From Acidimicrobiales bacterium (GTDB lineage: Bacteria; Actinomycetota; Acidimicrobiia; Acidimicrobiales; RAAP-2): a stretch of DNA of 64,000 bases. The stretch lies in the NCBI GenBank assembly GCA_036268485.1, contig DATAUC010000062.1, forward strand, positions 31,763-95,762, written 5' to 3'. Positions within the stretch are counted from its first letter, which is position 1. The number at the start of each line of letters is the position of its first letter. The notes below the pieces were generated by a model, which saw nothing but the letters and a program-made list of their open reading frames with translations, made no database searches and was not told the origin of the DNA. Position numbers and translations under genes: made by a program. Positions 1,173-19,476 of this stretch are shown here, one piece after another.

Positions 1173-1243
1173 TCGGTTTTCCTTGGTCTGGCCCGCTCTT
1201 CGCCGGCCGCATCGAACCGTGCCGGGGCGGCCGGTCGGCGCAG

Positions 1244-4246: not shown

Positions 4247-4448
4247 TGTGCACCTACCTCCTGCCCCAATCGGGGCGTTGTGGACGCTGCGAAGGCGAAA
4301 GTGGTGCTCCCTTCCATCCCGGCACTCCCTTTGAAACAGGTCACAATGATCGTGGCTGCATTGGCCTGGCAGCACCCTCAACCAGCTGCGGGGCAGCAGC
4401 CTGTGTCGGGGCGACTGCGCCCAGGTTGATACCGCAAACCATTGGATC

Positions 4449-5072
4449 ATGCACATACCAGTTCCACCACCATTGACCAACCCGCTTCTTGGGACCAACC
4501 TGCTGCCTTTTGGCGGCGAGGCCTATCTCGTGCCGCAGTTCCTGACCCCCCATGAGGCCGATCGCACCCTGGGGCAACTGCTCGTCGAGCTGCCATGGGA
4601 GCAGAAGCACGTGAAGCTGTACGGCAAGGTGCACCCGGTGCCTCGTCTTACCGCTTGGAGTGGCGACGTGGCGTACAAATACTCGGGCGTCATTCATGAG
4701 CCCGCACCGTGGTCACCAACGCTCGAAGCCGTCCGAGAGCGCGTGAGCCATGTCGTCCCGCGGCCAAATGGCGTGTTGGGCAATCTCTACCGCGGCGGTG
4801 TGGACACGGTCGGCTATCACGCCGACAACGAGAAGGTGTTCGGCCCGTACCCGATCATCGCGTCGGTCAGCCTCGGGGCGGAACGCCGCTTCACCTTGCA
4901 GCTCAACGACAACCACAGCGACAAGGTTGAGATGGTGCTGCCACACGGCAGCCTCTTGGTCATGGCCGGCGAGACCCAGACGAGGTGGAAGCACACCGTG
5001 CCGCCCGCTCGAAAGTCAGAGGGACACGTTGGTACCCGGGTGAACCTGACATTCCGGAAGCTGGTTGACTGA
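4449..5072 (+). CDS. alkB: AlkB-family Fe(II)/2-oxoglutarate-dependent dioxygenase (nucleic-acid demethylase)
   Basis: Motifs seen: HADNE (HxD), WKHTV (distal His) and RVNLTFR (RxNxTxR). The length is 207 aa. Confidence 0.85.
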   Translation: MHIPVPPPLTNPLLGTNLLPFGGEAYLVPQFLTPHEADRTLGQLLVELPWEQKHVKLYGKVHPVPRLTAWSGDVAYKYSGVIHEPAPWSPTLEAVRERVSHVVPRPNGVLGNLYRGGVDTVGYHADNEKVFGPYPIIASVSLGAERRFTLQLNDNHSDKVEMVLPHGSLLVMAGETQTRWKHTVPPARKSEGHVGTRVNLTFRKLVD

Positions 5073-5098
5073 AGGCGACGGGAGGCAGTGCAGGTGGG

Positions 5099-5791
5099 TT
5101 AGGCGATCATCTCCATCCTCAGACCGCGGCCATCGAGGTCTCCCCCGAGTTGGCGGTGAGTGCGGGTCGCCCAGCGCCGCGCGCTCCAGGCGGCCACGAA
5201 TGCATCGAGCACATCGTCTGGCTGAGTGCCCGGGAACCGCTGGCCGGCGTAATGGTCAACGTCATCGAACACGGTCCGCAGCGCGGCGAGTCGCTCGGCT
5301 CGACCGTTGGGCCTCCTCTTGTGATGGCTCATGGGCCTTCCGACCAAGATGGTGAAGCTCACTTCTGGGTGCACTTCGACGAAGGATTGCTGACGCTCGG
5401 GTGTGAGGAGCTGGTCTACCTCCCTGATCTTGGGGAGGATGGCGAAGGCCTGCTTCGAGATTGCCTTGCCTGAAATCGACCGGGACTTCTCACAGGCCAC
5501 TTCGTAGGATTGGGCGTCGAGCACGCCACGGACGGGTGCTGGGAACACCGAGCTTCTGCGGTCTCCGATCAGCTTTCGAGCTTCGAAGTCACAAGGCCGA
5601 GAATCGGTGGGCGAGAGGCCAATGGGAATGTCGATGGCGGCGGCTGAGAGTCGGCCGGAGTCGAGATCGGCGATCAAGGGCGCCAGGTCCGTGAGTACCG
5701 TCACTTCGGACGTGCCGTTGCCGTCGGCCGGCGTCGTCACCAAAACCCAACCAACACGACACCCGTCGAGACTACCCACCAACTTCGTCAT
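5099..5791 (-). CDS. DUF429 domain protein
   Basis: This lies in ORF 5099..5881, with the start taken at MTKLVGSLDGCRVGWVLV (ATG 5791, AAGGA upstream). It has the typical DUF429 N-terminus (GxDGCxxGW), IDIPIGL, and a C-terminal DDVLDAFVAAWSA motif. It starts 10 nt downstream of the NTase stop. Confidence 0.7.
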   Translation of the reverse strand: MTKLVGSLDGCRVGWVLVTTPADGNGTSEVTVLTDLAPLIADLDSGRLSAAAIDIPIGLSPTDSRPCDFEARKLIGDRRSSVFPAPVRGVLDAQSYEVACEKSRSISGKAISKQAFAILPKIREVDQLLTPERQQSFVEVHPEVSFTILVGRPMSHHKRRPNGRAERLAALRTVFDDVDHYAGQRFPGTQPDDVLDAFVAAWSARRWATRTHRQLGGDLDGRGLRMEMIA

Positions 5792-5801
5792 CAGGAGTCC
5801 T

Positions 5802-6668
5802 TTATCGAGCGGGGAACTGCCCTCCGAAGAGCAGGTTGAGGTAACTAAAGGCTTCGGCGGGCTTGTCGGCCCGGTACGCATCGAGTGCCTTCCGGGCCCT
5901 AGTTGCGGCGGTGTTCACCTTGGACAAAGCATCCTCAGCCTTGGCCGTTGTTGAGCAGGCGTAGAAGCGAGTAGTGACACCCTTGGGATCATTCATTGGA
6001 CCGAGACTGATCTTGGCAAGGTGCTCGAACAAGAAGCAGACGTCACAGACGGGAACAAACGACTTATCTCCAGAGAGGTATTGGGCGGCACGCATTTCGA
6101 GGTAGAAAGACGACATCGGCACGTTGTTGTAGTACTTCCACGCCTTGGCGAGGCGAGCGAGCTTCTTGGCCCCACCGGCGATGGCCGCTTCTTTGTTGAC
6201 GTCGTTGACGTAGGAAAGGTGCTCAAGCGGTGCTGATTCCATCCACTCGACTCCACCTACGCCTGGGATGTCGTACAGGGCAGGATCTTTGTCGTTCTTC
6301 CGGTAGCCCGGGATGACCTCCCAGGTTTCCGCGCCAGCGCTGAATTCCACGACCACCGCCGGTCGGCTGATCCGCACCGTGGTGTGCGGGAAACTCTTCG
6401 AGAGCGCCCCTTTTACGCGATCGAGTGCGGTGCCAGAGGTACCCGGCTTGTCCTTGAGGCTGACCAACAAATCGACGTCGCAATGACCCCGCACACCAGT
6501 GCCATGGCTGAAGGACCCCGCCTCCCTAAAGAGCTGAACGTCCAACGCATTCCGCAACGAAGTCTCGACACTTGATCGGTGAGAGGCCGCTGCGCTTCTC
6601 TGCGTCTCGAGGGGGACGAGTCGCGTGAGAAAGGTGTCGAACCCTTGGGCCACGGTAAGTGCCATCAC
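5802..6668 (-). CDS. SMODS/CD-NTase-like nucleotidyltransferase
   Basis: It carries a pol-beta NTase signature, GSFSHGTGVRGHCDVDLLV (GS...GT...DxD), a later acidic strand TWEVIPGY, and a KLARLAKAWKYYN helix. The start (GTG 6668 or ATG 6665) overlaps the stop of the upstream 2TM gene. Confidence 0.65.
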   Translation of the reverse strand: MMALTVAQGFDTFLTRLVPLETQRSAAASHRSSVETSLRNALDVQLFREAGSFSHGTGVRGHCDVDLLVSLKDKPGTSGTALDRVKGALSKSFPHTTVRISRPAVVVEFSAGAETWEVIPGYRKNDKDPALYDIPGVGGVEWMESAPLEHLSYVNDVNKEAAIAGGAKKLARLAKAWKYYNNVPMSSFYLEMRAAQYLSGDKSFVPVCDVCFLFEHLAKISLGPMNDPKGVTTRFYACSTTAKAEDALSKVNTAATRARKALDAYRADKPAEAFSYLNLLFGGQFPAR

Positions 6669-7051
6669 TGCTCCTTTGGTTCGTCCACTGCGTACGACTG
6701 TCCGCCGCTGTCGATGTTCGCCTGAGCTCGCCTGCGCGACCGTCGATTGGGAGGCTCTGCCGTCTTGTTCTGCTCATCGCGCCGCGAAGTGAGTTCCGCC
6801 AACATCTGGCGGGCATCATCCAGAGGCATGTACGGAAGATCAATCTCGCGTGCTTGGCGGGCCGCGGTCTGTATCTCGAGGTACGCATTGGCAGCGGACG
6901 ATGCCTGGTTCATGTGGTGAGAGGCGTTGATCGTGGTGAGGACAGCTCCGAATCCAGCTGCCGCAATGGCGAGTATGCCGGCGGTGATGCGCCCGGCTGT
7001 AGCTGCCAGCGCCGTGGCGCCGGATGCCGCGGCCAGGAGGCTGGCGGGCAA
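6665..7051 (-). CDS. SLATT-like two-transmembrane-helix protein (putative membrane effector)
   Basis: Two hydrophobic helices, PASLLAAASGATALAA and ITAGILAIAAAGFGAVLTTI, are followed by a charged tail (EPPNRRSRRRAQ). The track start is a TTG. The frame stays open upstream to the stop at 7184-7186 and encodes ...QWRGINLLLG, so the true start is uncertain (a CTG at 7060 is possible). Confidence 0.55.
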   Translation of the reverse strand: MPASLLAAASGATALAATAGRITAGILAIAAAGFGAVLTTINASHHMNQASSAANAYLEIQTAARQAREIDLPYMPLDDARQMLAELTSRRDEQNKTAEPPNRRSRRRAQANIDSGGQSYAVDEPKEQ

Positions 7052-7373
7052 CCCGAGCAGGAGATTGATCCCTCGCCACTGTTTCGTCTGCTCGAACTGT
7101 GCCTGAGAACTGTAGGTGGCGCTTTCCTCTACTCGCTGAAGTCGGCCTCTATGGCCGATCGTCTCTCTGCGTCCTCTGGTCCCTCAGCCATCACAAAGAC
7201 AGGCTAAGGGAGGGTTGTGACAACCCGAGGTGCACTTCACTCTCAAGGTCCGAAAGCTCCTTGTCTTGGATAGCCACTCCATTGTTAAGTCCATTTCTCC
7301 TGGTCAGCTGGCCAAAGCTTAGCTGTGTACGAGGACAGTCTCAAGTTCGGTTAGGGGATGTTGACGAAAAGTA

Positions 7374-7401
7374 TTGACAATCACACGTACACATCTATAC
7401 T
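7374..7401 (+). promoter_or_regulatory. sigma-70-like promoter, probably giving a leaderless transcript of the NYN/RM operon
   Basis: TTGACA (7374-7379), a 16-nt spacer, then TATACT (7396-7401). The ATG of the first gene at 7409 lies 7 nt after the -10 element, and no SD sequence is visible. The local region is AT-rich. Confidence 0.5.
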
Positions 7402-7408
7402 GGTCAAC

Positions 7409-7900
7409 ATGCGATCACACAAGCAGGAGAGCGGGCCCCGGCACTTGGTCCTCATCGACATCGAAAACATGGCCGGGACGCCCAGTCCAACGGCTCTGGA
7501 CGTGGATCAGGTGAAGGCTGCGCTTCGGACGGCCATCCCAGACCTAGAACAGGCACAGTGCGTCGTGGCTTGTAGTCATCGGGCGGCTGCCGTCGTCTCG
7601 TTCGGGTTCCCCGCGGCGCTGCGACGCTGGCGATCTGGGATCGATGGTGCGGACCGGGCCCTTATGGGCGAACTCAGTGACCTCCGCGTGATGAAGCGGT
7701 TCGGCAAAGTGACAATCTGCTCTGGCGACGGGATTTTCACCGAGAGCATTGCTGCAATCGCAGAACTTGGAGTCGAAACAACCGTGGTATCGCTTCAGGG
7801 TCATCTCTCAAAGCGCTTGAAGTGCGCGGCCCGCAGCGTTGTTTTGGTCGCACTCGGCGATACGCCGCCGCCCGTCAGCGCACTCAAGGGGGCCGCATGA
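7409..7900 (+). CDS. NYN/LabA-like (PIN-like) domain protein, putative RNase
   Basis: Motifs seen: LVLIDIENM, DGADRAL, ICSGDGIF, LGVETTVVS and a SKRL...VVLV tail, matching the NYN domain layout. The stop overlaps the next ATG (ATGA at 7897-7900). Confidence 0.65.
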   Translation: MRSHKQESGPRHLVLIDIENMAGTPSPTALDVDQVKAALRTAIPDLEQAQCVVACSHRAAAVVSFGFPAALRRWRSGIDGADRALMGELSDLRVMKRFGKVTICSGDGIFTESIAAIAELGVETTVVSLQGHLSKRLKCAARSVVLVALGDTPPPVSALKGAA

Positions 7901-9411
7901 GCGACAAAGCGAATGTTCAACTGGTTTCAATGGCGGACATCGCCCGCATGGCTGGACAGTCCCGGGCAACTGTGGGGAACTGGAAGGCTCGTGAGGACGA
8001 CTTCCCTGAAGAGCACAGCAGGGGCAAGAGAGGTCCGCTCTACGATCGTGAGCTCATCGCCCGGTGGTTGGCGGCAAAAGGTCGCATCACGGCGACTGCA
8101 CCAATTGGATCTCAGTTGTTCGGGCAAGTCGACGAGGAGTTCGCTCGCGGGTTCGACCCAGACGTCGTCTTGGAACTGTGGTTGGTTGTGTTGGCCTTGC
8201 GTTGCCTACTTCCCGAAGCCTCTTGGTCTCGTATCGCCGGCGCCGAGCCGGCGATGCTTGAAGATCAAGTTCGATCGGCCGCCCATCAATGGCTCGGAGA
8301 TGCAGCCGACCTTTTGCCCCGAGTGGCTCTGCCGGTGGCGGGGCTTGAAGGTGTTGTGAGGGGTGTGTCCGCACTCGATCAGGGCGGAATCTTGGATACC
8401 GCGGATTTTGTACTCGACAGACTGCTCCAGGGACATGGCCACATGGGGCACGGAAAGTTCTCCACCCCAAGGAGCCTTCGCTCTCTGATGACGGAACTTT
8501 GTGGCCCTGGTGCGTCATTCTACGACCCGGCAGCCGGGGCTGGCCGGTTACTGATCGAAGTGGCTGAGGCGAGCAATACTTTTCTGCCCCCAGCTCTTTT
8601 CGGTCAGGAGCCGAACGTCCACATCAGGAGCATTTGCGAGTTGAACCTGAAGATTCATGGACTTGAAGCGACGATCAAGTTGGACAACGTCCTGTTTTAT
8701 GACCTCTTCCCGGATGCCCAGTTCGACCGAGTCGTATGCGATCCACCATGGGGTCAACGGCTTCCCGAGACCAGCGCACTTGTCGACGATCCACGCTGGA
8801 TCTGGGGTGAGCCCACGGGCGATGCAAGCACGGCGTGGATTCAGCACTGCCTGTACCACTTAGGGCCGGAAGGTAAGGCTGTCATTGCCCTGCCGCCGAA
8901 GATTCTCTTTGAGAAGGGTCGGACGGCCCGAACGCTCCAAGGCATCATCAAGGCGGGACTTCTCGAGGCCGTGGTCAGCCTTCCACCCGGATTACTCCCA
9001 GGCGCCTCTATCGGGTGCGCTGTGCTGGTGTTCGCGAAGGGCCGGCCCACGGTGGACGGGAAGCCATCTCCTGCGTTGATGATCAACATCGACGATGCCC
9101 AGTTGGAGGGAGTCGGTAGGGAGAGGTCGCTCGCGCCCGGCCTTATCGCCTCGATCGGTGAAATTTATCGTAACTGGACTTCCGGCACGTCTCCCAACTC
9201 AGAGATTGCTTCGACAGCCCAGTACGATGATCTTGCTGAGAATGCCTTTGACCTGAGTCCTCGACGCTACGTGGTGCCAAGCACCGTCCTTGTTGACACG
9301 ACGGCGCTCCTTCACCAGCAACAGGAACTGATCCGGCGACTCGGCGACTCGCTGGACACATGCAAGAAGACTGATGCCCAACTGATCCGCCTGTTGCAGG
9401 AGCAGTCGTGA
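7897..9411 (+). CDS. N6-adenine DNA methyltransferase (HsdM-like, gamma class) with an N-terminal excisionase/MerR-type HTH
   Basis: The N-terminus VSMADIARMAGQSRATVGNWKAREDDFP looks like an HTH. Motif I is FYDPAAGAGRLL and motif IV is VCDPPWGQ. The likely start is MSDKANV at 7897. Confidence 0.8.
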   Translation: MSDKANVQLVSMADIARMAGQSRATVGNWKAREDDFPEEHSRGKRGPLYDRELIARWLAAKGRITATAPIGSQLFGQVDEEFARGFDPDVVLELWLVVLALRCLLPEASWSRIAGAEPAMLEDQVRSAAHQWLGDAADLLPRVALPVAGLEGVVRGVSALDQGGILDTADFVLDRLLQGHGHMGHGKFSTPRSLRSLMTELCGPGASFYDPAAGAGRLLIEVAEASNTFLPPALFGQEPNVHIRSICELNLKIHGLEATIKLDNVLFYDLFPDAQFDRVVCDPPWGQRLPETSALVDDPRWIWGEPTGDASTAWIQHCLYHLGPEGKAVIALPPKILFEKGRTARTLQGIIKAGLLEAVVSLPPGLLPGASIGCAVLVFAKGRPTVDGKPSPALMINIDDAQLEGVGRERSLAPGLIASIGEIYRNWTSGTSPNSEIASTAQYDDLAENAFDLSPRRYVVPSTVLVDTTALLHQQQELIRRLGDSLDTCKKTDAQLIRLLQEQS

Positions 9412-10109
9412 TGTCGGCCTCGCAGAAGAAGCTCGGAGCCATCGAAGGCGTGGAACTAGTGCGAGGCATGCCTACTACCCGCACAGCGAAGACTGGAGAC
9501 GTTCCCGTCCTCTCGGTCGCGGCCCTGCGCAACGGAGATGCTCCAAGGAGGTTTGTGGGGCGCGCTGAGATGATTACGGTGGGCGCGGCACTGGTCAATG
9601 ACGTGCTGCTCGCCGTAGAAGGTGGAACGGTTGGCGAGTGCTTCGTTGTTCACGAAGATCTCGCCGAGTTCGTTCCTTCACAGCAGGCGGCCACTCTTCG
9701 AGTGCTGTCAACTGAGGAAGTCGAGCCATGGTACCTAGGCGCCTGGCTGAGCTCCGCAGAGGGTCAACAAAGACTTGGTGTGATCGCGCGAGGATCAACC
9801 ATCCAGCGCATCGCATTTGGTGATCTCGAAGGCCTCGATGTCCGCATACCGCAGCTCACCGAGCAGCGACGCATAGGCGGACGATACCGGGCATTTAACG
9901 AATCGATACGGGCGCATCGAGCTGTTGCAGCTGAGTTGGAAGAACTGCAGAGGGTCGAGTTCGCACTGGCATTCTCCGGTGAAGAGATGCAGCAGGAAAG
10001 TGGACCAACGCTGAATCAAGCGGCGCTTAGGCGATTGAAGGCAAGAGCCACTTCGTTCTCTGATGAAAGACTTCCTGATGGGCCACCCAAAGAAGAGGGG
10101 AAACGATGA
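9408..10109 (+). CDS. half-size type I specificity subunit (single target recognition domain)
   Basis: At 233 aa it has one TRD plus the conserved helix region (STIQRIAFGDLEGLDVRIPQLTEQRRIG...ELEELQR). There are 4-nt overlaps at both ends. Confidence 0.7.
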   Translation: MMSASQKKLGAIEGVELVRGMPTTRTAKTGDVPVLSVAALRNGDAPRRFVGRAEMITVGAALVNDVLLAVEGGTVGECFVVHEDLAEFVPSQQAATLRVLSTEEVEPWYLGAWLSSAEGQQRLGVIARGSTIQRIAFGDLEGLDVRIPQLTEQRRIGGRYRAFNESIRAHRAVAAELEELQRVEFALAFSGEEMQQESGPTLNQAALRRLKARATSFSDERLPDGPPKEEGKR

Positions 10110-12052
10110 ATAGCCATTCCGAGAAGGTCGCCTTTATATGGTCGGTCAAAGAAGTCCTCCGAGACCACTACAAGAGGCACCAGTACGGGGAAGTGATCTT
10201 GCCCTTCTGCGTCCTGCGGCGACTCGACTGCGTGCTTGAACCCACCAAGGAGGATGTACTGGTGAAGGCCTCAAGTATCTCAGGAGAACTCGACTCTCAT
10301 GCCGATCTGCTGGCTCATACTGCCAAGCAGCCCTTCTACAACACCTCGAAGTTCAGTTTCGCCAACTTGTTGGGCGACCAGCACAACATCACGGCAAACG
10401 TGCACGACTTCATCAACGGTTTCTCGCCTAACACACGCGACGCTCTGGAGAAATTCGGTCTACCTCGCCACGTCGACAAGATGGGCGAGGCTGGGATCCT
10501 CTACATGGTGGTCCAGCGCTTTGCTGCCATCGACCTGCACCCCGAGGTCGTCTCCAACCTCGACATGGGCTACATCTACGAGGATCTTGTTCGAGTCACA
10601 GCCGATCTCTCCAATGAGGAGGCAGGGGAGCACTTCACACCCCGAGAGGTCATTCAACTGATGGTGAACATCTTGTTCTCCGACGAGGACAAGCTGCTAA
10701 CCCAGGGCAAGATCGCTACCGTCTACGACCCCGCCTGCGGGACCGGGGGCATGCTGTCGGTGGCCGAAGAGCACCTGCGAGAAATCAATCCGTCGGCCAA
10801 GCTCCACCTATTCGGACAGGAGATCCAGCCTGAGTCCTACGCCGTGTGTCGTTCCGACATGCTGCTCAAGGGACAGGACGCGTCCCGCATTGAGTTCGGT
10901 GATTCATTCACCCAGGACGAATTCGCCGGCGAGCGGTTTGACTACATGTTGGCCAACCCGCCGTTCGGCAAGGACTGGAAGACTATCGAAAAGGACCTCA
11001 AGCGCGAGCATTCGCAGCTCGGTATGTCAGGACGCTTCGGCGCAGGTCTGCCGTCCACCTCGGATGGCCAGATCCTCTTTCTTCAGCAGATGATTTCGAA
11101 GATGCGACCTATCGAGGACGGGGGCAGTCGCATCGGGGTCGTCTTCAACGGCTCGCCACTATTCTCCGGCGACGCCGGCTCCGGCATGAGCGAGATTCGA
11201 CGCTGGATCATCGAGAACGACATGCTCGAGGCGATCATTGGTTTGCCCGATCAGCTCTTCTACAACACCGGCATCTACAGCTACGTCTGGGTGGTTACCA
11301 ACCGCAAGCGTCCGGAGCGTCGAGGCCACGTGCAGTTGATCGACGCCCGCGAACTCTGCGCCAAAATGCGCAAGAGCCTAGGCAACAAGCGCAACGAGCT
11401 TCTGCCAGCGCATATCACTGAGATCGTAAGGCTGTACGAGGGCTGCATCGATGGCGAGAGTTCAAGGGTGCTGCCCAATGAAGCCTTCGGCTACCGCAAG
11501 GTGGTCGTGGAACGCCCGCTCCGTGTTCGCTACGACGTCTCCGAGGCGACTGTTGCCGCGGTCGCTGAGTTAAAGCCGGTCCAGGCACTCGATGAATCAG
11601 AGGCAGTCACGTTGGCAGACGGCCTGCAGTCCCTCGCTGGCAACTCTTACGCAACATTGAGTGAGTTGGAGCTGGCTCTGAAGCCGCTGTTTGCCAAACT
11701 GGCCAAGGCGTCGGCTCCACTTCGAAAGGCTGTCCTGTCTGAGTGCATGACACGAGATCCGGAGGCGGATCCACTACTGACGGTGAAGGGCGCGTTCGTG
11801 CCCGATCCGGACCTACGGGATGCCGAGAGTGTGCCACTAGGGGAGGACGTCAGCGAGTTCATTGCCCGTGAAGTGACGCCCTTTGCTCCGGACGCTTGGG
11901 TGGATGAGAGCAAGACCAAGCTCGGGTACGAGTTCCCTTTCACCCGACATTTCTATGCGTACGTGCCGCCTCGACCACTAGACGAAATCGATGCGGACAT
12001 CAAAGCAAGTCAGCAAAGGATCTTACGGTTGCTCGCCGAGGTGGCTGAGTGA
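10106..12052 (+). CDS. hsdM: type I restriction-modification methyltransferase subunit M
   Basis: It has an HsdM N-terminal region. Motif I is VYDPACGTGGMLS and motif IV is NPPFGKDWK. The length is 648 aa. Confidence 0.9.
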   Translation: MNSHSEKVAFIWSVKEVLRDHYKRHQYGEVILPFCVLRRLDCVLEPTKEDVLVKASSISGELDSHADLLAHTAKQPFYNTSKFSFANLLGDQHNITANVHDFINGFSPNTRDALEKFGLPRHVDKMGEAGILYMVVQRFAAIDLHPEVVSNLDMGYIYEDLVRVTADLSNEEAGEHFTPREVIQLMVNILFSDEDKLLTQGKIATVYDPACGTGGMLSVAEEHLREINPSAKLHLFGQEIQPESYAVCRSDMLLKGQDASRIEFGDSFTQDEFAGERFDYMLANPPFGKDWKTIEKDLKREHSQLGMSGRFGAGLPSTSDGQILFLQQMISKMRPIEDGGSRIGVVFNGSPLFSGDAGSGMSEIRRWIIENDMLEAIIGLPDQLFYNTGIYSYVWVVTNRKRPERRGHVQLIDARELCAKMRKSLGNKRNELLPAHITEIVRLYEGCIDGESSRVLPNEAFGYRKVVVERPLRVRYDVSEATVAAVAELKPVQALDESEAVTLADGLQSLAGNSYATLSELELALKPLFAKLAKASAPLRKAVLSECMTRDPEADPLLTVKGAFVPDPDLRDAESVPLGEDVSEFIAREVTPFAPDAWVDESKTKLGYEFPFTRHFYAYVPPRPLDEIDADIKASQQRILRLLAEVAE

Positions 12053-13323
12053 ATACCTCGGGCTTGGCGCATCAAGCTGCACCGGCGCAAGCGGCAATGC
12101 TGAGCATCCCAAGAGGATGGCGGACCTATCGACTCAAGCACGTTGCGAAGCTGAATCGCGAGGTGTTGCCGGAGATGACTGATCCAGACAGCACCTTTCG
12201 CTACATCGACATTGGGTCAGTCGACAGCTTGGGACGGATCTCGGATGTCGAAGAACTGACCTTCGGGGAGGCACCAAGCCGAGCTCGACGAGTTGTTCAT
12301 CGAGGAGATCTCATCGTGTCCACCGTCCGCACCTACCTCCGAGCCATTGCACAACTAGAGGACTTGGATGGTGCAGTAGTCGCCTCGACGGGATTTGCCA
12401 CGGTGACGGCTGGAGCTCTTGTAGAACAGCGGTTCCTCTATTGGTGGTTGCGGAGTACGCCATTCGTCGAAGAGGTCGTTGCCCGCTCAACGGGGGTCAG
12501 CTACCCCGCCGTCAACGCGTCCGACATTGGCGACATCGTCGTGCCCGTTCCTCCAATGGATGAGCAACGTCGGATCTCCAAGTACCTGGATTCAGCCACT
12601 GCGCGAATCGATGAACTTCTGGCGGAGCAGGACCAACAGATAGTTCTGCTTGAAGAGAGGTTGCTCGCAGAACGTCGAGCTCTACTTCTGGGTCCCGAGG
12701 GTTTGGGGTTCCCGGGGTGGGACTATGGACGACTCAAGCGGTTCATCTCGATTGCTCGGGGTCGATTCACTCATCGTCCTCGAAATGACCCTGCCCTATA
12801 TGACGGACCGTATCCATTCATACAGACGGGAGACATCGTTTCAGCTGTGAATGGAGAGATCATCACTTGGTCGCAGTCGCTCAATGAAATCGGCCTTGCT
12901 GCCAGTCGTTTAGCTAAGAAGGGCACCTTGGTAATGGCCATCGCCGCGAACATCGGAGACATCGCACGGCTGGGCTTTGATGCTTGCTTTCCCGACAGCA
13001 TCGTTGCGCTATCGGGCTCCGCTGCCGTGACGGACGACTACGTCCTTCAGCTCGTCCGTGCGATCCGCACCGAACTTATCGGAGGTGCCACCTTGAACAC
13101 TCAATTGAACACCAATGTCGATCGGATCGGGGACATCCAAGTTCCCATTCCTCCCATCTTGGAGCAGAAACGCTTGGTCGAGGTGCTAGATCAATCTGCG
13201 CGAGACGTACAGGAACTCAAACTCGAGAACAACCAGCAGAACTCACTTCTGCGCGAGCACCGACAGGCTCTCATCACCGCAGGTGTCACTGGTGGCCTTG
13301 AGGCGTTACGGGAGGTGGCGTGA
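12049..13323 (+). CDS. hsdS: type I restriction-modification specificity subunit S (two TRDs)
   Basis: At 424 aa it has two TRD-plus-conserved-helix units (PPMDEQRRISKYLD... and PPILEQKRLVEVLD...). Confidence 0.85.
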   Translation: MNTSGLAHQAAPAQAAMLSIPRGWRTYRLKHVAKLNREVLPEMTDPDSTFRYIDIGSVDSLGRISDVEELTFGEAPSRARRVVHRGDLIVSTVRTYLRAIAQLEDLDGAVVASTGFATVTAGALVEQRFLYWWLRSTPFVEEVVARSTGVSYPAVNASDIGDIVVPVPPMDEQRRISKYLDSATARIDELLAEQDQQIVLLEERLLAERRALLLGPEGLGFPGWDYGRLKRFISIARGRFTHRPRNDPALYDGPYPFIQTGDIVSAVNGEIITWSQSLNEIGLAASRLAKKGTLVMAIAANIGDIARLGFDACFPDSIVALSGSAAVTDDYVLQLVRAIRTELIGGATLNTQLNTNVDRIGDIQVPIPPILEQKRLVEVLDQSARDVQELKLENNQQNSLLREHRQALITAGVTGGLEALREVA

Positions 13324-16300
13324 TGCCATCGCATGTGACGGAGCACCAGTTCGAGTCAGACATCGTCGAATCGCTCACAACGAGCGGTGGGTACTCGTTG
13401 GGCGCGGACTCCCACTTCGACAAGAAGTCTGGTGTGGATACAGCTGAACTCTTCGCATTCCTCGGAAACACCCAGGGTGAGAAGTGGAACTCATTCGTCG
13501 ACACCCGCTACGGCGGAGACGCTGGCAAGGCGCAGGAGAAGTTCTTGTCCCGTCTTGTCGCTGAGCTCGACCAGCACGGGACAATCGACGTTTTGCGAAC
13601 CGGCATCAAGGACCAGGGCGTGAACTTCGCCTTGGTGTACTTCAAGCCAGCATCGGGCATGAACGCGACGCTCGCCGAACTCTACGCGAAGAACCGACTT
13701 ACCGTCACCCGGCAACTCCATTACTCCCTGGCCAATGCCAATTCGCTCGATCTCGCCCTGTTCGTGAACGGGATACCAGTCGCGACTGCGGAGCTGAAGA
13801 GCACATTCAACGGGCAGACCGTGGACCATGCCATCGAGCAGTACGAGAGCGATCGCGACCCTAAGGAGTTGCTTCTTGGCCGGCGCGCGCTCGTCCATTT
13901 CGCCGTCGATCCCCACCTCGCCTACATGACGACGAAGCTGGCATACAAGGCAACGGAATTCCTACCCTTCAACCTCGGTAGCAACCCCGGCCAGATGTCC
14001 TGTGGCGAGGGCAACCCACCCAATCCCAAGGGGTATTCCACGTCCTACCTATGGGAGCGGGTCTGGTCCTACGATGCCTGGCTCGACATCTTGGGACGCT
14101 TCGTCGAGTCCTTTCAGGACGGCAAGGGCAAGCCCCGCCGGGTGGTCTTCCCGCGGTTCCACCAGTGGGACGCCGTCACCAAGCTGGCTGCGGATGCGCT
14201 GGCCAATGGCCCTGGGAACTCCTACTTGATCCAACATTCTGCGGGGTCGGGCAAGTCCAACTCCATCGGATGGTTGGCACACCGGCTCTCACTGCTCCAC
14301 GACTCGGCTGACCACAAGGTGTTCAACAAGGTGATCGTCGTCACCGATCGCCGGGTCCTCGACGAGCAGCTCCGGGCCACGGTGAGGCAGTTCGAGGACG
14401 TGAAGGGCACGATGGTTTCGGTGGAGGGCAAGAGCGGCTCGAAGTCGTCCGAGTTAGCCGATGCCCTCACCGGCATGGCCCAGATCATCACAGTGACACT
14501 CGAAACATTTCCCTATGTGATCACCAAGATCGCGGAGGCCGAGCTCGCCAAGTTCACCTATGCGGTCATCGTGGACGAGGCGCACTCGTCGCAGACCGGG
14601 GATGCGGCGAACGCGCTGAAGCAGGCCCTCGGCGCCGGCGGCGGAGGCGGATCAGAGGGTGAGGGCGAAGGCGAAGGGGAGATGGACGCTGAGGCGGCGC
14701 TCGCGGCCATTGTGGCCGCACGCGGACGCCAGCCGAACCTGAGCTTCTTCGCCTTTACCGCAACGCCCAAGGCTCGCACGGTCGAGCTCTTTGGAGTCCC
14801 CAACGCGGAGGGCATCAAGATCCCCTTCCACCTCTACACGATGCGTCAAGCCATCGAAGAGAAGTTCATCCGCGACGTCCTGGAGAACTACGCCACCTAC
14901 GACACCTACTTCAAGCTTGCCGCAACCTCAGAGCAAGCGGCCCATGAGGAGGTGGACGTCCGCAAGGCCGCTTCGGCCATCCGGCGCTATGTGGCGAGGA
15001 ACCCCGCGCTCATCAAGCAAAAGGCGGCGATCATCGTCGAACACTTTCGCGAGCACACGGCGAAGGAGATCGGCGGGCGAGCCAAGGCCATGGTGGTCAC
15101 CGACTCGCGTCCCGCCGCGGTCAAGTACAAAGCGGCCATTGACGCTCACATTGCTGAAAACCACATCACAGATGTGAAGGCGTTAGTGGCGTTCTCGGGC
15201 ACGGTCAACGACGATGTTATGGGAGAAGTCACCGAGAGCTCGCTCAACGGTTTCGCCGAATCACAGACGGCGGCCCGCTTCAAGGGTACGGATCCTTTCA
15301 AGCCGGGGGACTACCAGATCCTCATCGTGGCCGAGAAATTCCAGACGGGCTTCGACGAGCCGTACCTGCACACCATGTTCGTCGACAAGCCGCTGAAGGG
15401 TCTCAACGCGGTACAGACTCTGTCGCGCCTCAACCGCATCGCACCGGGGAAGACCTCTACATTCGTGCTCGATTTTCGCAATAAAGCCGAAGACATCCAG
15501 TCGGCGTTCCAGCGCTACTACGAGGCCGTCATCGCGGAGTCCACTAACCCGAACGTCCTCTACGACCTCCAGGGTCGCATGATGGGTGTTGGCATTCTCG
15601 ACGTGGCCGAGATCAATGCTGCGAGCGACGCCTTCTTTGGCATCGACCCATCGAAGCGGAGCTTGAAAGCCCTCTACGCAAATGTCGACCCGGCCGTGGA
15701 CCGCTTCAAGGACCTCGATGACGATGACCAGGCGGAGTTTCGGGACGCTTCTGACCGATTCATCCGGGCTTACTCGTTCCTGTCGCAGGTCATGCCGTGG
15801 ACCGACCCCGAGCTCGAGCGGCTCTATGTCTACGCCAAGGCCCTCGCCGCATGCCTGCCGGCGCAATTGTCCGGAGGGCTGGACCTCGGTACTGACGTGG
15901 TTCTGACACACCTCCGGTTGGTCGATCGGGGCGCCGAGGAGGTCGACCTTCAGCCGGGCGAGGTCAGTCCGGAGAAGCCGTTCCCTGGCGAGGGCCACGC
16001 GGGCGGTCCCGGCGATCCCCTCCTCGACAACCTGAGCACAGTCATCGAGCAGATCAACGAGATCTTCGGTGCCGACCTCGACGAGCGGGACCGCCTTGAG
16101 GTCGAGAAGATCAAGATGACTCTCCTAGACCGTCAGGATCTCAAGACCTATGCGACGGCCAACAGCGAGGAGAACTACGCCCTCGAGTTCGGCCCTGTAT
16201 TCAGGGGTGCGGTCCTGGACCAAGAGGAGCACAACCGGCGCCTCTACGAGCTGCTGCAATCCAAGCCCGATTTGGCAGCCATGGTCGAGAAGCAGCTGAT

Positions 16301-16352
16301 GCGCGAGACCTACAACCAGCTACGGGCGGATCCGCCGGCCAATACGCCATGA
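13320..16352 (+). CDS. hsdR: type I restriction endonuclease subunit R
   Basis: SF2 helicase motifs are present: HSAGSGKSNS (I), VDEAHSSQTG (II, DEAH), FTATPK (III) and QTLSRLNR (VI). The length is 1010 aa. Confidence 0.9.
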   Translation: MMPSHVTEHQFESDIVESLTTSGGYSLGADSHFDKKSGVDTAELFAFLGNTQGEKWNSFVDTRYGGDAGKAQEKFLSRLVAELDQHGTIDVLRTGIKDQGVNFALVYFKPASGMNATLAELYAKNRLTVTRQLHYSLANANSLDLALFVNGIPVATAELKSTFNGQTVDHAIEQYESDRDPKELLLGRRALVHFAVDPHLAYMTTKLAYKATEFLPFNLGSNPGQMSCGEGNPPNPKGYSTSYLWERVWSYDAWLDILGRFVESFQDGKGKPRRVVFPRFHQWDAVTKLAADALANGPGNSYLIQHSAGSGKSNSIGWLAHRLSLLHDSADHKVFNKVIVVTDRRVLDEQLRATVRQFEDVKGTMVSVEGKSGSKSSELADALTGMAQIITVTLETFPYVITKIAEAELAKFTYAVIVDEAHSSQTGDAANALKQALGAGGGGGSEGEGEGEGEMDAEAALAAIVAARGRQPNLSFFAFTATPKARTVELFGVPNAEGIKIPFHLYTMRQAIEEKFIRDVLENYATYDTYFKLAATSEQAAHEEVDVRKAASAIRRYVARNPALIKQKAAIIVEHFREHTAKEIGGRAKAMVVTDSRPAAVKYKAAIDAHIAENHITDVKALVAFSGTVNDDVMGEVTESSLNGFAESQTAARFKGTDPFKPGDYQILIVAEKFQTGFDEPYLHTMFVDKPLKGLNAVQTLSRLNRIAPGKTSTFVLDFRNKAEDIQSAFQRYYEAVIAESTNPNVLYDLQGRMMGVGILDVAEINAASDAFFGIDPSKRSLKALYANVDPAVDRFKDLDDDDQAEFRDASDRFIRAYSFLSQVMPWTDPELERLYVYAKALAACLPAQLSGGLDLGTDVVLTHLRLVDRGAEEVDLQPGEVSPEKPFPGEGHAGGPGDPLLDNLSTVIEQINEIFGADLDERDRLEVEKIKMTLLDRQDLKTYATANSEENYALEFGPVFRGAVLDQEEHNRRLYELLQSKPDLAAMVEKQLMRETYNQLRADPPANTP

Positions 16353-17911
16353 GGTGGCGGTCAGCTCAGTCCGATCTTGAGCCCAAGACCACCATCTACG
16401 AACACATCATCGCGCACTTGCCCCCGGCTGGACCCGGCCTCACCGAGGGAGGTGACACGCTGCCCGACACCCAGCCGAAGAGCGACGAGCTGGCATGGAT
16501 CAGCGGTGGTCTCGACGGAGCGTTCGGGTTCCATGCCGGACCAGCGGCTGGTGATGAGCAGCTCGTGCTCGATGTGTTCGGGCTGCTGGCCAAGGCGACC
16601 CGACCAGGAGCGAAGGCCACTGACGTTGGCCGCCTGTACGAGAAGGTCCGGACATCTGAAGTACTGGCGTCGTTGGACGCAGTGCTGCGAATGGTGCGAT
16701 CGAACGGGTTGCCAGCGGCAGGTCTCCGACACGTTGGTGTTCGGCTTGCCAAGGAGGGTCGACACCGAGAGCCGGTGAAGTTCGGCATGGCGCTCCTGGG
16801 TCTCTTGAAGGGGGACCCCGAACGGGACCTGTTGCTGATGCTCGGACGTCACGAGGAGTTCACCCTGTTTGCGGTGGTGGCCATCAAGAACTCTGACCCT
16901 GATTCGGAGCCTTTCTTGCTGAAGCTGGCAAAGAGCGTCGAAGGGTGGGGCAGGATCCAGTGCGTCCGGCGGTTGAGCGACGCCGAGCGCTCCGACACGA
17001 AGGACTGGATTCTGAGGGAGGGGTTTCGAAACGGCGTCATGAACGAGTACCTCGCCTTCATCGCAGCGACGACGGGGGGCCTGGTCACTGCTTTGGGAGG
17101 TCCCGGGGGCGATCCGATCCTCCTCGATGCCGCCTGCGACATCATCTCGGCCCTCATCGCCGGCGGCCCAGCCGAGGACATCGATGACTATGAGCAGGCA
17201 CCCGAGGCGATCCGCCTCTTGGTCAGCCGGCTCAACGGTGAAGCTGTGTCCCTCCACAATTTCCTCGCGGTGGACGACATCGAACGGTTTTTGGCCGACG
17301 ACGAGGGATGGGACGGTCGGCTGGAAAAGGGCTGGACGGCAGACTTGCGGCAAGAGCTGATCGACCGCACGCGTGCCATCAAGTCCTGGGAGAGCTGGAG
17401 GGCTCTCGCCGTAGAGGGCCTGGCCTCGGAGGACCGCTACGGCTACTACGTGGCCGACCGAGTTGCCAGGTCCCTGGGGGTCGACACCTTTGAGAACCGG
17501 TGGCAGCGACTGCAGGCTGATCCGCTCAGAGAGAGTTGGCAGTGGGTGTTCGAGCTCTGCGACGAGCGCCGAATCGATGAGGTCATCGCACTGGCAGAGA
17601 TCGCCCTGCCTCTGGAGAAAATTGCCAGCGGGCCGGCTGAATCCTTGGGTATCGGGCCGGAGTGGGGACCCCACCGGGCACTCGATTCCGTCCTCCAGGG
17701 CCTAAGGCGATTCCCGGGCCGAGGGTGGAAACTTGTCGAGACCGGTCTGCGAAGCCCGGTGGTGAGAAACCGGAACATGGCCATCAGAACGCTCTCGGCA
17801 TGGGGACCCGGATCGTTCTCGCCCGAGATGCGTGCCGCCGTGACCGCTGCGGCCGAGATCGAACCTCGAGACGACGTACGGGGTCGGCTGGAGGATCTAT
17901 GCAATTCCTGA
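16349..17911 (+). CDS. hypothetical all-alpha protein with HEAT-like repeats, translationally coupled to hsdR
   Basis: The ATG at 16349 overlaps the hsdR TGA (ATGA). The 520-aa product has HEAT-like segments (WGRIQCVRRLSD and SPVVRNRNMAIRTLSAWG). The antisense ORF 16361..17674 is judged a shadow ORF. Confidence 0.55.
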   Translation: MRWRSAQSDLEPKTTIYEHIIAHLPPAGPGLTEGGDTLPDTQPKSDELAWISGGLDGAFGFHAGPAAGDEQLVLDVFGLLAKATRPGAKATDVGRLYEKVRTSEVLASLDAVLRMVRSNGLPAAGLRHVGVRLAKEGRHREPVKFGMALLGLLKGDPERDLLLMLGRHEEFTLFAVVAIKNSDPDSEPFLLKLAKSVEGWGRIQCVRRLSDAERSDTKDWILREGFRNGVMNEYLAFIAATTGGLVTALGGPGGDPILLDAACDIISALIAGGPAEDIDDYEQAPEAIRLLVSRLNGEAVSLHNFLAVDDIERFLADDEGWDGRLEKGWTADLRQELIDRTRAIKSWESWRALAVEGLASEDRYGYYVADRVARSLGVDTFENRWQRLQADPLRESWQWVFELCDERRIDEVIALAEIALPLEKIASGPAESLGIGPEWGPHRALDSVLQGLRRFPGRGWKLVETGLRSPVVRNRNMAIRTLSAWGPGSFSPEMRAAVTAAAEIEPRDDVRGRLEDLCNS

Positions 17912-17959
17912 GCTCTGACGGACGGTGAGTCCCATGGAGCACAGGCGAGCGACGCGCAA

Positions 17960-17983
17960 CCGCCGGCCCCTCAGGGCCGGCGG
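17960..17983 (+). terminator. stem-loop downstream of the RM operon
   Basis: A perfect 10-bp stem, ccgccggccc and gggccggcgg, with a ctca loop. It lies 49 nt after the stop at 17911. There is no U-tract, so its function is uncertain. Confidence 0.4.
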
Positions 17984-18089
17984 TCACAATCCCTGGGGTG
18001 ACGGGCGAGAAACTTCCTCGCTCGCCACCTCCAACAAGGGGCTCGCTTTTTTACACAGTTTCGGGTGTTTTTTTACGAACACCCCCTCT

Positions 18090-18434
18090 TGGAGGTGGCG
18101 GGGTTCGAACCCGCGTCCTTCAGAGCTTCAATAGGCCTTCTCCGAGCGCAGCCAGCAAAAGATTGTCGGGGGCGGCATCACTGCTGGCGGTTGAGCCGCC
18201 CCGTATTCAACTGAATGTCCCTAGTGGTTAGTTGACGTCACTGCTAGGTAAGCCCTACTGAATGGCGCCCACGTTCCGATCCATAGGGCTGAGACCGGGT
18301 GAACGTCGCTACTTAAGCAGCGAGTGCGAGCTGAGGCTCGGCATTTATTTTTGGTTCCGGCTCTTTAACGTGGTTCCGGAGACCACGGCTCGCTTCTCCT
18401 ATATCAACGACCGAAGTCGAATCCAATCACCCCC
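18090..18434 (-). ncRNA. ssrA: tmRNA (transfer-messenger RNA)
   Basis: The reverse strand begins GGGGGTGATTGGATTCGAC and ends GGACGCGGGTTCGAACCCCGCCACCTCCA. The acceptor stem has a G3:U70 pair. An internal tag ORF GCC GAG CCT CAG CTC GCA CTC GCT GCT TAA (18342-18313) gives AEPQLALAA. It lies directly downstream of smpB. Confidence 0.9.
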
Positions 18435-18516
18435 ATGTAGTGGGCACATCTCCACCGGCCACTTTGACCAGGGCCCCAGTCTACGCCCGGCTCAGCGAGC
18501 CTGGCACGTGAGCGAC

Positions 18517-19041
18517 CTACGCCCCACTCCACTGGTTGACTTCCTTCTGGGCCCGGGCCGCTTCCCGCTCGGCGTCCCGGGTCTGGAGCAGATTCCGTTT
18601 GTCATAGAGGTGGCGTCCCTTGGCCAGGGCGATCTCCACCTTGGCCCGACCGTCCTTGAAGTAGAGCTTCACCGGAATGAGGGTCAGTGACTGCTGTTGG
18701 GTTTTGCCCTGCAACTCGTCGATCTGCTTGCGATGCAGCAGGAGCTTGCGCTTGCGGTCGGGTTCGTGGGCCCCGAAGCTGGTGGCGTACTGCCAGGGCG
18801 GTATGTGCATCTGGAAGAGCCACATCTCGCCGCCGTCGACCCGGGCGTAGGCCTCGGTCAGCTGGGCTTTTCCCTCACGGAGCGACTTGACCTCGGAGCC
18901 TTGCAGCACAATGCCGGCTTCCAGCGTCTCAATGAACTCGTACTCCCGGCGGGCGCGTCGATTGGTGGCGACCGTGCGGTCGCTCCCTTGCGCTTCGCGG
19001 GCAGCTTCCCGCTTGGCGATCTGCTTCTTCGCCCTGGCCAT
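18517..19041 (-). CDS. smpB: SsrA-binding protein SmpB
   Basis: This lies in ORF 18517..19314, with the start at MARAKKQ (ATG 19041). It matches SmpB in length (174 aa) and sequence style (RREYEFIETLEAGIVLQGSEVKSLR...LLLHRKQI). Confidence 0.9.
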   Translation of the reverse strand: MARAKKQIAKREAAREAQGSDRTVATNRRARREYEFIETLEAGIVLQGSEVKSLREGKAQLTEAYARVDGGEMWLFQMHIPPWQYATSFGAHEPDRKRKLLLHRKQIDELQGKTQQQSLTLIPVKLYFKDGRAKVEIALAKGRHLYDKRNLLQTRDAEREAARAQKEVNQWSGA

Positions 19042-19065
19042 AGGGGTCGAGGGTACCCTGACACC

Positions 19066-19476
19066 GTGCTCCGCCTGACCAACGCCATGTACATGGAGAT
19101 GATCGGGCACTGCCTGACCGGTCTGCCCGACGAGGCCTGCGGCCTGCTCGTGGGCACCTACGGGGGCGACGAGGCCACCCACCTCTTTCCCACGGCCAAC
19201 GCCGCCGCCTCGGCCATGGTCTACGAGATCGACCCCAAGGTGATGCTGACGATTGATCGGGAGGCCCAGAAGCTGGGGGCCGACATCATGGGCGTCTTCC
19301 ACTCGCACACCCATACCGATGCCTACCCCTCCCCTACCGACGTGGCCCAGGCCCTAGATCCCGGCTGGCACTACGTCCTGGTGTCCCTCCGGGACACCCA
19401 CCCGGTGGTGCGCAGCTATCGCATCGTCGACGGCGCCATCACCGAGGAGCCGGTCGACGTGCCCGGGCTGGACTGA
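19066..19476 (+). CDS. mec: JAMM/MPN+ metalloprotease (Mec-type, CysO-processing)
   Basis: It has EACGLLVG and HSHTHTDAYPSPTD (the JAMM motif HxHx7Sx2D). The start is GTG 19066 or ATG 19087. The gene sits upstream of cysO-cysM, as in M. tuberculosis. Confidence 0.8.
   Translation: MLRLTNAMYMEMIGHCLTGLPDEACGLLVGTYGGDEATHLFPTANAAASAMVYEIDPKVMLTIDREAQKLGADIMGVFHSHTHTDAYPSPTDVAQALDPGWHYVLVSLRDTHPVVRSYRIVDGAITEEPVDVPGLD

Follow-up and report, generated by a model that had tools for sequence, protein, structure and literature searches.

A recurrent cassette of NYN protein, helix-turn-helix methylase-like protein and half-size specificity subunit at the head of type I restriction-modification operons

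Introduction

Why should an operon that already encodes a complete type I restriction-modification (RM) enzyme carry a second methylase gene, a second specificity gene, a leading gene for a NYN domain protein and a trailing gene without an assigned function? The question is raised by seven genes, here called g1 to g7, in a 64-kb stretch of DNA from a metagenome-assembled genome of an Acidimicrobiales bacterium (GenBank assembly GCA_036268485.1, contig DATAUC010000062.1; this whole stretch is the window below). Few bacterial defences are commoner than type I RM systems, whose regulation and resistance to anti-restriction proteins are little understood. An earlier note on the window treated the seven genes as one system and left three readings open, viz., two specificities served by one HsdR, an RM system with a built-in back-up effector, and a new multi-component defence. 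We find instead that the locus is a composite operon in three layers: a cassette of g1-g3, a type I set of g4-g6 and a passenger, g7. The cassette has become linked time and again to type I systems that are unrelated to one another, and, judging from sequence and analogy, we tentatively favour the view that it is an autoregulated guard or decoy with a NYN effector, similar to Ronin or PrrC.

Structure of the composite operon

The seven plus-strand open reading frames (ORFs) and the six 4-nt start/stop overlaps described earlier are all present (Table 1). The overlaps are ATGA at 7897, 10106 and 16349 and GTGA at 9408, 12049 and 13320, with an additional ATG that starts 3 nt past positions 9408 and 13320, and the sequence is thus compatible with the single co-transcribed and translationally coupled unit that had been proposed. 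The identical locus is also present in a 100-kb JGI contig and in a Logan contig. The first three genes encode a stand-alone NYN protein (g1), a helix-turn-helix (HTH) protein with an HsdM-type methylase domain (g2, or M') and a half-size specificity subunit (g3, or S').

Recurrence of the cassette with unrelated type I systems

Loci with the cassette were collected first in a scan of metagenomes with g2 as anchor and then by tblastn and phmmer, seeded from several type I families; those distinct loci whose downstream sequence reaches at least 1 kb were counted as informative (n = 28). Relatives of g2 with at least 33% identity and flanking sequence nearly all have a relative of g1 (45-60% identity) directly upstream and a relative of g3 directly downstream, all three co-directional and with stop and start codons that overlap or almost touch; the 12 NYN/M' junctions that were checked all overlap or lie at most 3 nt apart. 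In 22 of the 28 informative loci, among them four actinobacterial plasmids, the cassette is followed at once by type I genes of the same strand, and in every linked case found it is the cassette that sits 5' of the type I genes. The two halves of the operon (7409-10109 and 10106-17911), which the earlier note had allowed might occur only separately, therefore recur together in these 22 loci, and its view of g1-g3 as a non-standard addition to a type I set proves real.

The type I partners are diverse. They occur in two gene orders, for example M-S-R with a HindI-like HsdR C-terminus (L091, L178) and R-M-S with EcoEI_R_C (L085, L098), and their HsdR proteins belong to at least three families, ending in EcoEI_R_C, in T1RH-like_C or in neither. 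In one locus (L179) HsdM is 85% identical to g4, yet the NYN protein, M' and S' are only 47%, 44% and 53% identical to their counterparts in the window, from which it follows that cassette and type I module have recombined and were not inherited together. The same architecture is available on plasmids of culturable hosts, namely Corynebacterium glutamicum p48A, Dietzia pDK2035-69 and Mycolicibacterium alvei pJCM12272.

A further account holds that the NYN protein and M'S' are a toxin-antitoxin-like stabiliser of mobile elements that hitch-hikes with restriction genes and has no functional coupling to restriction. The cassette is indeed found on plasmids, near Tn7-like genes and recombinases, in a low-GC region adjacent to ssrA and, in six loci, alone, and PIN-like toxins have been noted within type I operons by Matelska et al. 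(PMC5499597). We nevertheless regard this account as quite unlikely, as the linkage keeps the same orientation and position in 22 of 28 loci, often with overlapping stop and start codons, and does so across type I families despite recombination, a degree of specificity far beyond what shared residence in an island would produce; moreover, the PIN/RM arrangements reported in PMC5499597 are not conserved, whereas that of the cassette is.

Searches of the literature turned up no account of the cassette, of its operator, of the motif decay discussed below or of the systematic linkage to type I genes; what comes closest is the general remark on PIN-like toxins in PMC5499597, together with Ronin and RptR. 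Routine annotations carry labels such as 'NYN domain-containing protein' and 'N-6 DNA methylase'. The cassette has thus apparently gone undescribed so far; the type I part is ordinary.

Some individual loci deserve mention. The closest relative of the cassette in the window (L164, 6176-10700; NYN 82%, M' 74% identity) looks degraded, with M' cut to 405 aa and the half-size S and HsdM in fragments, owing either to pseudogenisation or to assembly errors. A type I/IV composite (L126, 9902-20771) is headed by a NYN-less version of the module, in which the gene for a fused HTH-M-S protein (662 aa, DPPF) is followed at once by those for HsdM, HsdS, a GmrSD type IV enzyme and HsdR. On the P0125 contig (JGI 3300047160) the cassette is followed by four co-directional genes for proteins of 332, 441, 505 and 432 aa without a Pfam match, which may be a different partner system in place of type I. 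In M. alvei pJCM12272 (L163, 1232-5216) the operon of NYN, M'S' and type I genes lies a few kb from Tn7-like tnsA/tnsB/tnsC and may be cargo of a Tn7-like transposon.

The methylase-like and specificity proteins of the cassette

The description of g2 as an HTH-headed, HsdM-like methylase stands firmly for one half and less so for the other. The match to N6_Mtase is clear (E = 2.4e-46) and the HsdM_N domain is absent; the N-terminal HTH of about 60 aa matches MerR_1, HTH_17, AlpA and HTH_38, all below their cut-offs, and reaches 20.9 bits against a cut-off of 20.3 for Terminase_5, a marginal match. Some homologues of g2 are labelled 'AlpA' by JGI. The top sequence matches in the PDB are the M subunits of PacII and EcoR124. 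A single protein of 640-720 aa combines M' and S' in the plasmid-borne forms of the cassette and also in a NYN-less clade that is more distantly related.

The first residue of the (D/N)PP(Y/F/W) motif IV is needed for amino-methyltransfer. In most NYN-linked M' proteins this motif reads VPPW, IPPW, APPW, DLPM, APLW, IPQW, TPPW or EPPF, so that methylation cannot be the conserved function of M', the catalytic D/N having been lost in most relatives. The glycines of motif I (GxG) and the GQE motif are kept in nearly all of them, and binding of S-adenosylmethionine (SAM) may therefore persist. This loss of the catalytic residue in most relatives of M' is newly recognised here.

The S' subunit, with its single Methylase_S domain match, departs from restriction specificity subunits in another way. 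Its target recognition domain (TRD; aa 20-150) is 42-56% identical over 22 loci, more than its helical region (32-45%); four related loci (L108-L111) stand apart with a TRD only 26-29% identical. With 42-52% identity, S' is conserved no less than M' (33-44%), whereas among the canonical subunits of the same loci HsdS is by far the more variable (28-35% against 45-50% for HsdM). The cassette hence lies outside the usual diversification of restriction specificity, as the TRD of S' is conserved and not variable. The conserved recognition domain of S' is likewise recognised here for the first time.

These properties bear on the hybrid reading, according to which M'2S'2 and M2S both dock on one HsdR so that two motifs are methylated and restricted. 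Truncated HsdS of EcoDXXI and EcoR124I form functional symmetric specificities. A half-size S also serves M.AhdI, an M2S2 enzyme (PMC2878638); g2 of the window has motifs I and IV intact (DPAAGAG, DPPW), and all genes are translationally coupled in one operon. Even so, M' has no HsdM_N, its clade occurs with unrelated HsdR C-terminal families, in both gene orders or without any HsdR, the TRD of S' does not diversify as restriction specificities do, and most M' proteins lack the catalytic D/N, in which case recruitment of HsdR would restrict the host's own unmethylated sites. On account of this variety of HsdR, the missing HsdM_N, the self-destructive consequence for the dead relatives and the TRD that does not diversify, we consider a two-specificity hybrid improbable, the least probable of the readings discussed here. 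As a general explanation the idea of two specificities sharing one HsdR is not supported, given the mixed HsdR families, the loss in motif IV and the conserved TRD.

The NYN protein

The product of g1 matches Pfam NYN (PF01936) with 27.9 bits, above the gathering cut-off of 24.2, and its 266 homologues, nearly all of 146-202 aa (one of 230), form a tight stand-alone clade of proteins of about 160 aa. A search of the PDB with the g1 sequence gave no match, and its single-sequence AlphaFold model has a predicted local distance difference test score (pLDDT) of 43. The conserved motifs of the family are DxEN, GADLAL and CSGDGIF. Anantharaman and Aravind are said to have described, in 2006, NYN nucleases with four conserved catalytic Asp residues; three of the four acidic positions are kept here, viz., the Asp of DxEN, the Asp of GADLAL and the first Asp of SGD.

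The NYN protein is not confined to M' partners. The same clade (58-61% identical to g1) is elsewhere paired, in overlapping genes (Table 1), with a protein of about 500 aa that combines ADP-ribosylglycohydrolase (ARH) and DSPc phosphatase domains. This pairing is newly noted here and makes the NYN protein a swappable partner. The pair adjoins an RpiR-like regulator and lies near SIR2, HEPN and AddAB-like genes, a context resembling a defence island, and may be a separate uncharacterised conflict system. That the NYN protein might be the nuclease of a motor-less M'S' RM system was also considered and is rejected for the family: most M' proteins are non-catalytic and self-protection would fail.

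Promoter and operator of the cassette

The near-consensus promoter that the earlier note had placed at 7374-7401 is upheld: 11 of its 12 positions match, it is the sole plus-strand match in 6500-19000, a scan that by itself is not above chance (2 sites found against 2.4 expected), and the same geometry of -35, -10 and ATG is kept upstream of the g1 homologue in about 20 further loci. As the ATG at 7409 lies only 7 nt past the -10 box and has no Shine-Dalgarno sequence, the g1 mRNA is probably leaderless. Automatic gene callers put the start of g1 at ATG 7358, in a longer ORF that would enclose the promoter; because of this, and because alignments with homologues begin only at about residues 1-10 of the 163-aa protein, the start at 7409 is favoured.

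The spacer between the -35 and -10 boxes holds the conserved 12-mer GTGTACGTGTGA on the minus strand (TCACACGTACAC on the plus strand), and this inverted copy is the only exact one in the window. Upstream of NYN genes in general, GTGTACGTGTGA or near variants stand at fixed positions -50 and -30 from the ATG and flank or overlap the -35 box. With up to two mismatches to the 12-mer admitted, the 2.5 kb of DNA upstream of NYN genes contain 32 copies and 223 kb of other sequence contain 6, an enrichment of about 476-fold. The L179 locus has the same single inverted copy in the promoter spacer as the window. Where the recognition helix of the HTH is altered (L098, L091 and the plasmid forms), other repeats occupy the same upstream positions, and NYN genes with a non-HTH partner lack the operator. 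The coincidence of changes in HTH and operator across loci is anecdotal, and suggestive. We presume from these sequence patterns that the HTH of g2 binds the 12-mer and autoregulates the operon. The probably leaderless promoter of the cassette, with its conserved 12-mer operator, is newly recognised here.

An operator at this place invites the explanation that the cassette is a controller and nothing else, i.e. that HTH-M'·S' autoregulates type I transcription and has no abortive or sensing function, with M'S' acting as a fixed-site, orphan-like methylase in loci like the window and the NYN protein processing or destabilising the polycistronic mRNA. In each of the 22 linked loci the cassette precedes the type I genes in the same orientation, it bears the conserved promoter and operator, and the conserved recognition domain of S' suits a fixed DNA site. 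Type II methylases with an N-terminal HTH, such as those of the SsoII and EcoRII type, are known to autoregulate. The repressor RptR provides a precedent for type I islands headed by a repressor (PMC12255303). Such a role would make the cassette a new type of type I RM regulator. A plain repressor, however, needs neither a pseudo-methylase body of about 430 aa nor an S subunit nor a NYN protein under purifying selection; the NYN clade also occurs with the non-DNA-binding ARH/DSPc protein and no operator, which argues for a logic of effector plus sensor, and cassettes are found without any type I genes to control. We therefore hold a purely regulatory role to be unlikely, though it has a real chance of being correct.

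Functional interpretation

In the guard or decoy reading that we favour, the cassette would supply the leaderless promoter of the operon with the operator in its -35/-10 region, and the HTH of M' would bind this operator and repress the operon, thereby controlling how much type I enzyme is made. Together with the half-size S', M' would probably form a particle of AhdI-like composition, M'2S'2, whose single DNA-binding specificity is fixed and does not diversify. Since the motif IV residue is lost in most M' proteins, the conserved task of M'S' would be binding or sensing and not methylation. The particle would keep the nuclease-like NYN protein inactive, and counter-defence by a phage that disables the type I enzyme, for instance by means of DNA-mimic anti-restriction proteins or SAM depletion, would release it. 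The release would be an abortive back-up, analogous to Ronin (RonA with an HsdMS decoy) and PrrC/EcoprrI. In the window, where g2 has DPPW, the particle may additionally methylate DNA, and a second m6A motif is possible in this locus even if methylation is not the conserved role. Among the three readings offered earlier, an RM system with a built-in back-up effector comes closest; what has to be changed is the place of M' and S', which belong to the back-up and regulatory cassette and not to the restriction enzyme.

Several observations weigh against this interpretation. Motif IV is canonical (DPPW, NPPF or NPPW) in g2 of the window and in a minority of its close relatives, so the g2/g3 pair of this locus may be nothing more than a second working methylase. 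Throughout the NYN family, Ile, Ala or Trp-Ile takes the place of the second Asp in the canonical SGDsDF motif, and, with one canonical acidic residue missing family-wide, the protein may not be a nuclease. The conserved TRD of S' fits a fixed regulatory DNA target as well as it fits a decoy. Six loci have the cassette without nearby type I genes, and its strictly upstream position where they are present suggests transcription control as its main or even only role.

Going a step further, one may imagine the cassette as a widespread self-repressing guard of type I systems in Actinomycetota and other soil bacteria, which senses anti-restriction measures through its decoy M'2S'2 particle and unleashes, for abortive infection, a NYN RNase that is reusable with other decoy sensors of the ARH/phosphatase kind. 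In this general form the proposal is doubtful.

The type I genes, g7 and the surrounding region

The matches of g4-g6 agree with the complete canonical type I set recognised earlier. HsdM (g4) has HsdM_N (PF12161, E = 1.1e-20) and N6_Mtase (PF02384, E = 3.8e-57) with NPPF intact in motif IV, and matches the REBASE-derived PADLOC MTase_I model PDLC03029 over its full length with 873 bits. HsdS (g5) has two Methylase_S stretches in 424 aa, i.e. two TRDs, and HsdR (g6) combines the HSDR_N nuclease with a SWI2_SNF2/ResIII translocase of superfamily 2 (SF2) and T1R_D3. It scores 187 bits against TIGR00348, under the subfamily cut-off of 284, and its family has neither the EcoEI_R_C nor the T1RH-like_C terminus. 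By their domains, these genes encode a standard type I RM system of M2S methylase and HsdR motor-nuclease, presumably directed to a bipartite site that the two TRDs of g5 determine.

The seventh gene is a different matter. The 'HEAT-like' label given to it earlier holds in so far as its AlphaFold model (pLDDT 90.6) is an all-alpha solenoid; in Foldseek searches of the PDB the model finds only generic HEAT/ARM repeats (E > 1e-3, TM at most 0.37), and no match was found in Pfam, NCBIfam, PADLOC or PHROG. The family comprises more than 530 proteins of about 540 aa from many phyla, all annotated as hypothetical. A genomic survey with one genome per species gave 329 relatives; in the best 80 of these loci there is no homologue of g1-g6 within 10 kb (0/80) and no recurring neighbour family beyond close relatives. 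The three closest metagenomic relatives (49-54% identity) have unrelated neighbours, with no RM domains among the called genes, and none of 80 g2-anchored loci has a homologue of g7. Given the lack of RM linkage in 80 genomic loci and three metagenomic contigs, g7 is a local passenger outside the conserved system, although its 4-nt overlap suggests that it is co-expressed with hsdR here. A conserved seven-gene system, the unit assumed in the earlier note, is accordingly rejected, as relatives of g7 have neither homologues of g1-g6 nor any conserved neighbour.

Table 1. Features of the locus in the window and of related loci
Feature	Position	Strand	Description
Operon promoter	7374-7401	+	-35 TTGACA 7374-7379, 16-nt spacer, -10 TATACT 7396-7401; sigma-70-like
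Conserved 12-mer operator GTGTACGTGTGA	7381-7392	-	TCACACGTACAC on plus strand; in -35/-10 spacer
g1	7409-7900	+	163-aa stand-alone NYN/LabA-like (PIN-like) protein; first cassette gene; putative RNase effector
g2 (M')	7897-9411	+	504 aa; N-terminal HTH, helical linker, HsdM-type N6-methylase domain
g3 (S')	9408-10109	+	233-aa half-size specificity subunit; one TRD and one helical region
g4	10106-12052	+	Canonical HsdM, 648 aa; HsdM_N and N6_Mtase; motif IV NPPF
g5	12049-13323	+	Canonical two-TRD HsdS, 424 aa; two Methylase_S stretches
g6	13320-16352	+	HsdR, 1010 aa; HSDR_N nuclease, SF2 motor (GSGKS, DEAH), T1R_D3
g7	16349-17911	+	520-aa all-alpha HEAT/ARM-like solenoid (predicted); 4-nt overlap with hsdR
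Structured intergenic region	17912-18088		Minimum free energy -90.2 kcal/mol, z = -7.3
Transfer-messenger RNA gene ssrA	18089-18434	-	Right-hand boundary of the operon-bearing low-GC region, from GC profile
smpB	18517-19314	-	
NYN + ARH/DSPc two-gene pairs	L165 10001-11988; L167 10001-12018; L168 2184-4201		Genes overlap
Cassette loci with type I genes			Window, L083, L085, L088-L092, L094, L098, L103, L104, L107-L111, L178, L179
Plasmids with cassette and type I genes			Mycolicibacterium alvei, Gordonia sp., Dietzia kunjamensis, Corynebacterium glutamicum
Cassette loci without type I genes			L096/97, L099, L101/102, P0125 contig, C. comes pCETAM, Rhodococcus plasmid

The operon region has 60% GC against 66% for the window and is part of a low-GC stretch (about 4000-19000; 58-63% against 66-70%) that ends at the 3' end of ssrA, 178 nt from the end of the operon. 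Two elements of the structured region in between, a GC-rich hairpin (about 17959-17984) and a stem with a run of six U behind it some 40 nt before the 3' end of ssrA, probably terminate the operon and the convergent ssrA. The stretch holds the RM operon, a SMODS/SLATT pair, a DUF429 gene, a gene for an AlkB-like oxygenase and several ORFs without a family match, and looks like a defence island adjacent to ssrA. The window yielded no second copy of the ssrA 3' end in a 12-mer search, and integration at ssrA is thus no more than a suggestion from location and GC content.

Within this stretch, a SMODS nucleotidyltransferase (5802-6668, minus strand) overlaps by 4 nt the gene for a 128-aa protein (6665-7051, minus strand) with a weak SLATT-like two-transmembrane match; together they are a probable SMODS/SLATT conflict pair, divergent from the RM operon. 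Two overlapping ORFs of 354 and 289 aa (183-2113, minus strand) and a 579-aa ORF (2759-4498), all without a Pfam or PHROG match, are situated towards the left of the low-GC region and could be island-borne genes or recombinases. Outside the low-GC region, a Fic/DOC family protein (20861-21304, minus strand) and a 53-aa ORF just upstream of it in the JGI annotation form a probable toxin-antitoxin pair.

Comparison with known systems

Two classes of systems with several methylase-related genes were weighed and set aside. MADS is rejected, for only sub-threshold PADLOC matches to mad1, mad2 and mad5 (14-103 bits) were obtained, those to NCBIfam MADS2 and MADS5 reach 32-57 bits against cut-offs of 400-720, and neither database gave a match to mad3, mad4 or mad6-8; in its authors' model MAD6, MAD7 and MAD8 are mandatory. 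The M1M2S type I systems (m6A/m4C; PacII) have two close M paralogues, NPPF and NPPY, and one two-TRD S (PMC5100572, PMC9613975). They share with the locus two methylase genes and one HsdR, and the M subunit of PacII is the best sequence match of g2 in the PDB; an m4C-type system is nonetheless rejected, given that g2 and g4 align over no more than the catalytic domain, with about 26% identity, that g2 has DPPW and that there are two separate S genes.

M.AhdI, a methyltransferase of M2S2 composition with a half-size S (PMC2878638), resembles g2/g3 at the level of genes, both having an HsdM-type M and a half-size S with one TRD. Fused M-S 'type I-like' methylases (PADLOC MTase_I PDLC03037) are a further parallel, as the M' and S' of the cassette family also occur in fused form. 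AhdI differs in having a type II endonuclease, a C protein and an active methylase; no type II endonuclease or C protein was found in 5000-19000, and the cassette has often lost catalysis and is always led by a NYN gene.

RptR of the type I RM/DarTG2 island of enteropathogenic Escherichia coli (EPEC) is a small stand-alone repressor that binds direct repeats of TAGCTA in the promoter (PMC12255303). The likeness consists in a DNA-binding protein at the head of a type I operon with repeats in the promoter and in a genetic association with type I systems, and the RptR island also embeds a toxin module. Here, on the other hand, the HTH is fused to a methylase-like protein, the operator is GTGTACGTGTGA and its binding is presumed.

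In EcoprrI the gene between hsdS and hsdR encodes PrrC, a large anticodon nuclease that resembles ABC ATPases and is masked by the functional type IC enzyme. The cassette would be comparable in placing an RNase-type effector in a type I operon, which in our model is kept latent by M/S complexes and has a back-up role. It differs in that the NYN gene stands at the 5' end of the operon with an M'/S' pair of its own; no gene lies between g5 and g6, which overlap by 4 nt, and g1 has a NYN domain.

Ronin, from E. coli ECOR55, consists of the toxin RonA, a protein of 61 aa with a predicted transmembrane helix, and an HsdS/HsdM decoy without HsdR; methylase catalysis is dispensable, the system is linked to RM or BREX, and cell death is triggered by Ocr, ArdA and Aop1 (Silas et al., bioRxiv 10.1101/2023.04.06.535777). 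The resemblance to the cassette is one of architecture only, namely a small effector gene tightly linked to an HsdR-less M/S pair beside a complete RM system, and the decay of motif IV in most M' proteins is an indirect hint in the same direction as the dispensable catalysis of Ronin. Unlike RonA, the effector here is a soluble NYN/PIN-like protein of 163 aa and not a membrane peptide of 61 aa, and no small ORF like ronA was identified, although no search aimed at one was made; M' has an N-terminal HTH and no HsdM_N, S' is half-size with a conserved TRD, and the cassette stands first in the type I operon and brings a conserved operator with it. If the guard or decoy reading is true, the principle of Ronin and PrrC extends to a new class of effector and to Gram-positive, high-GC lineages.

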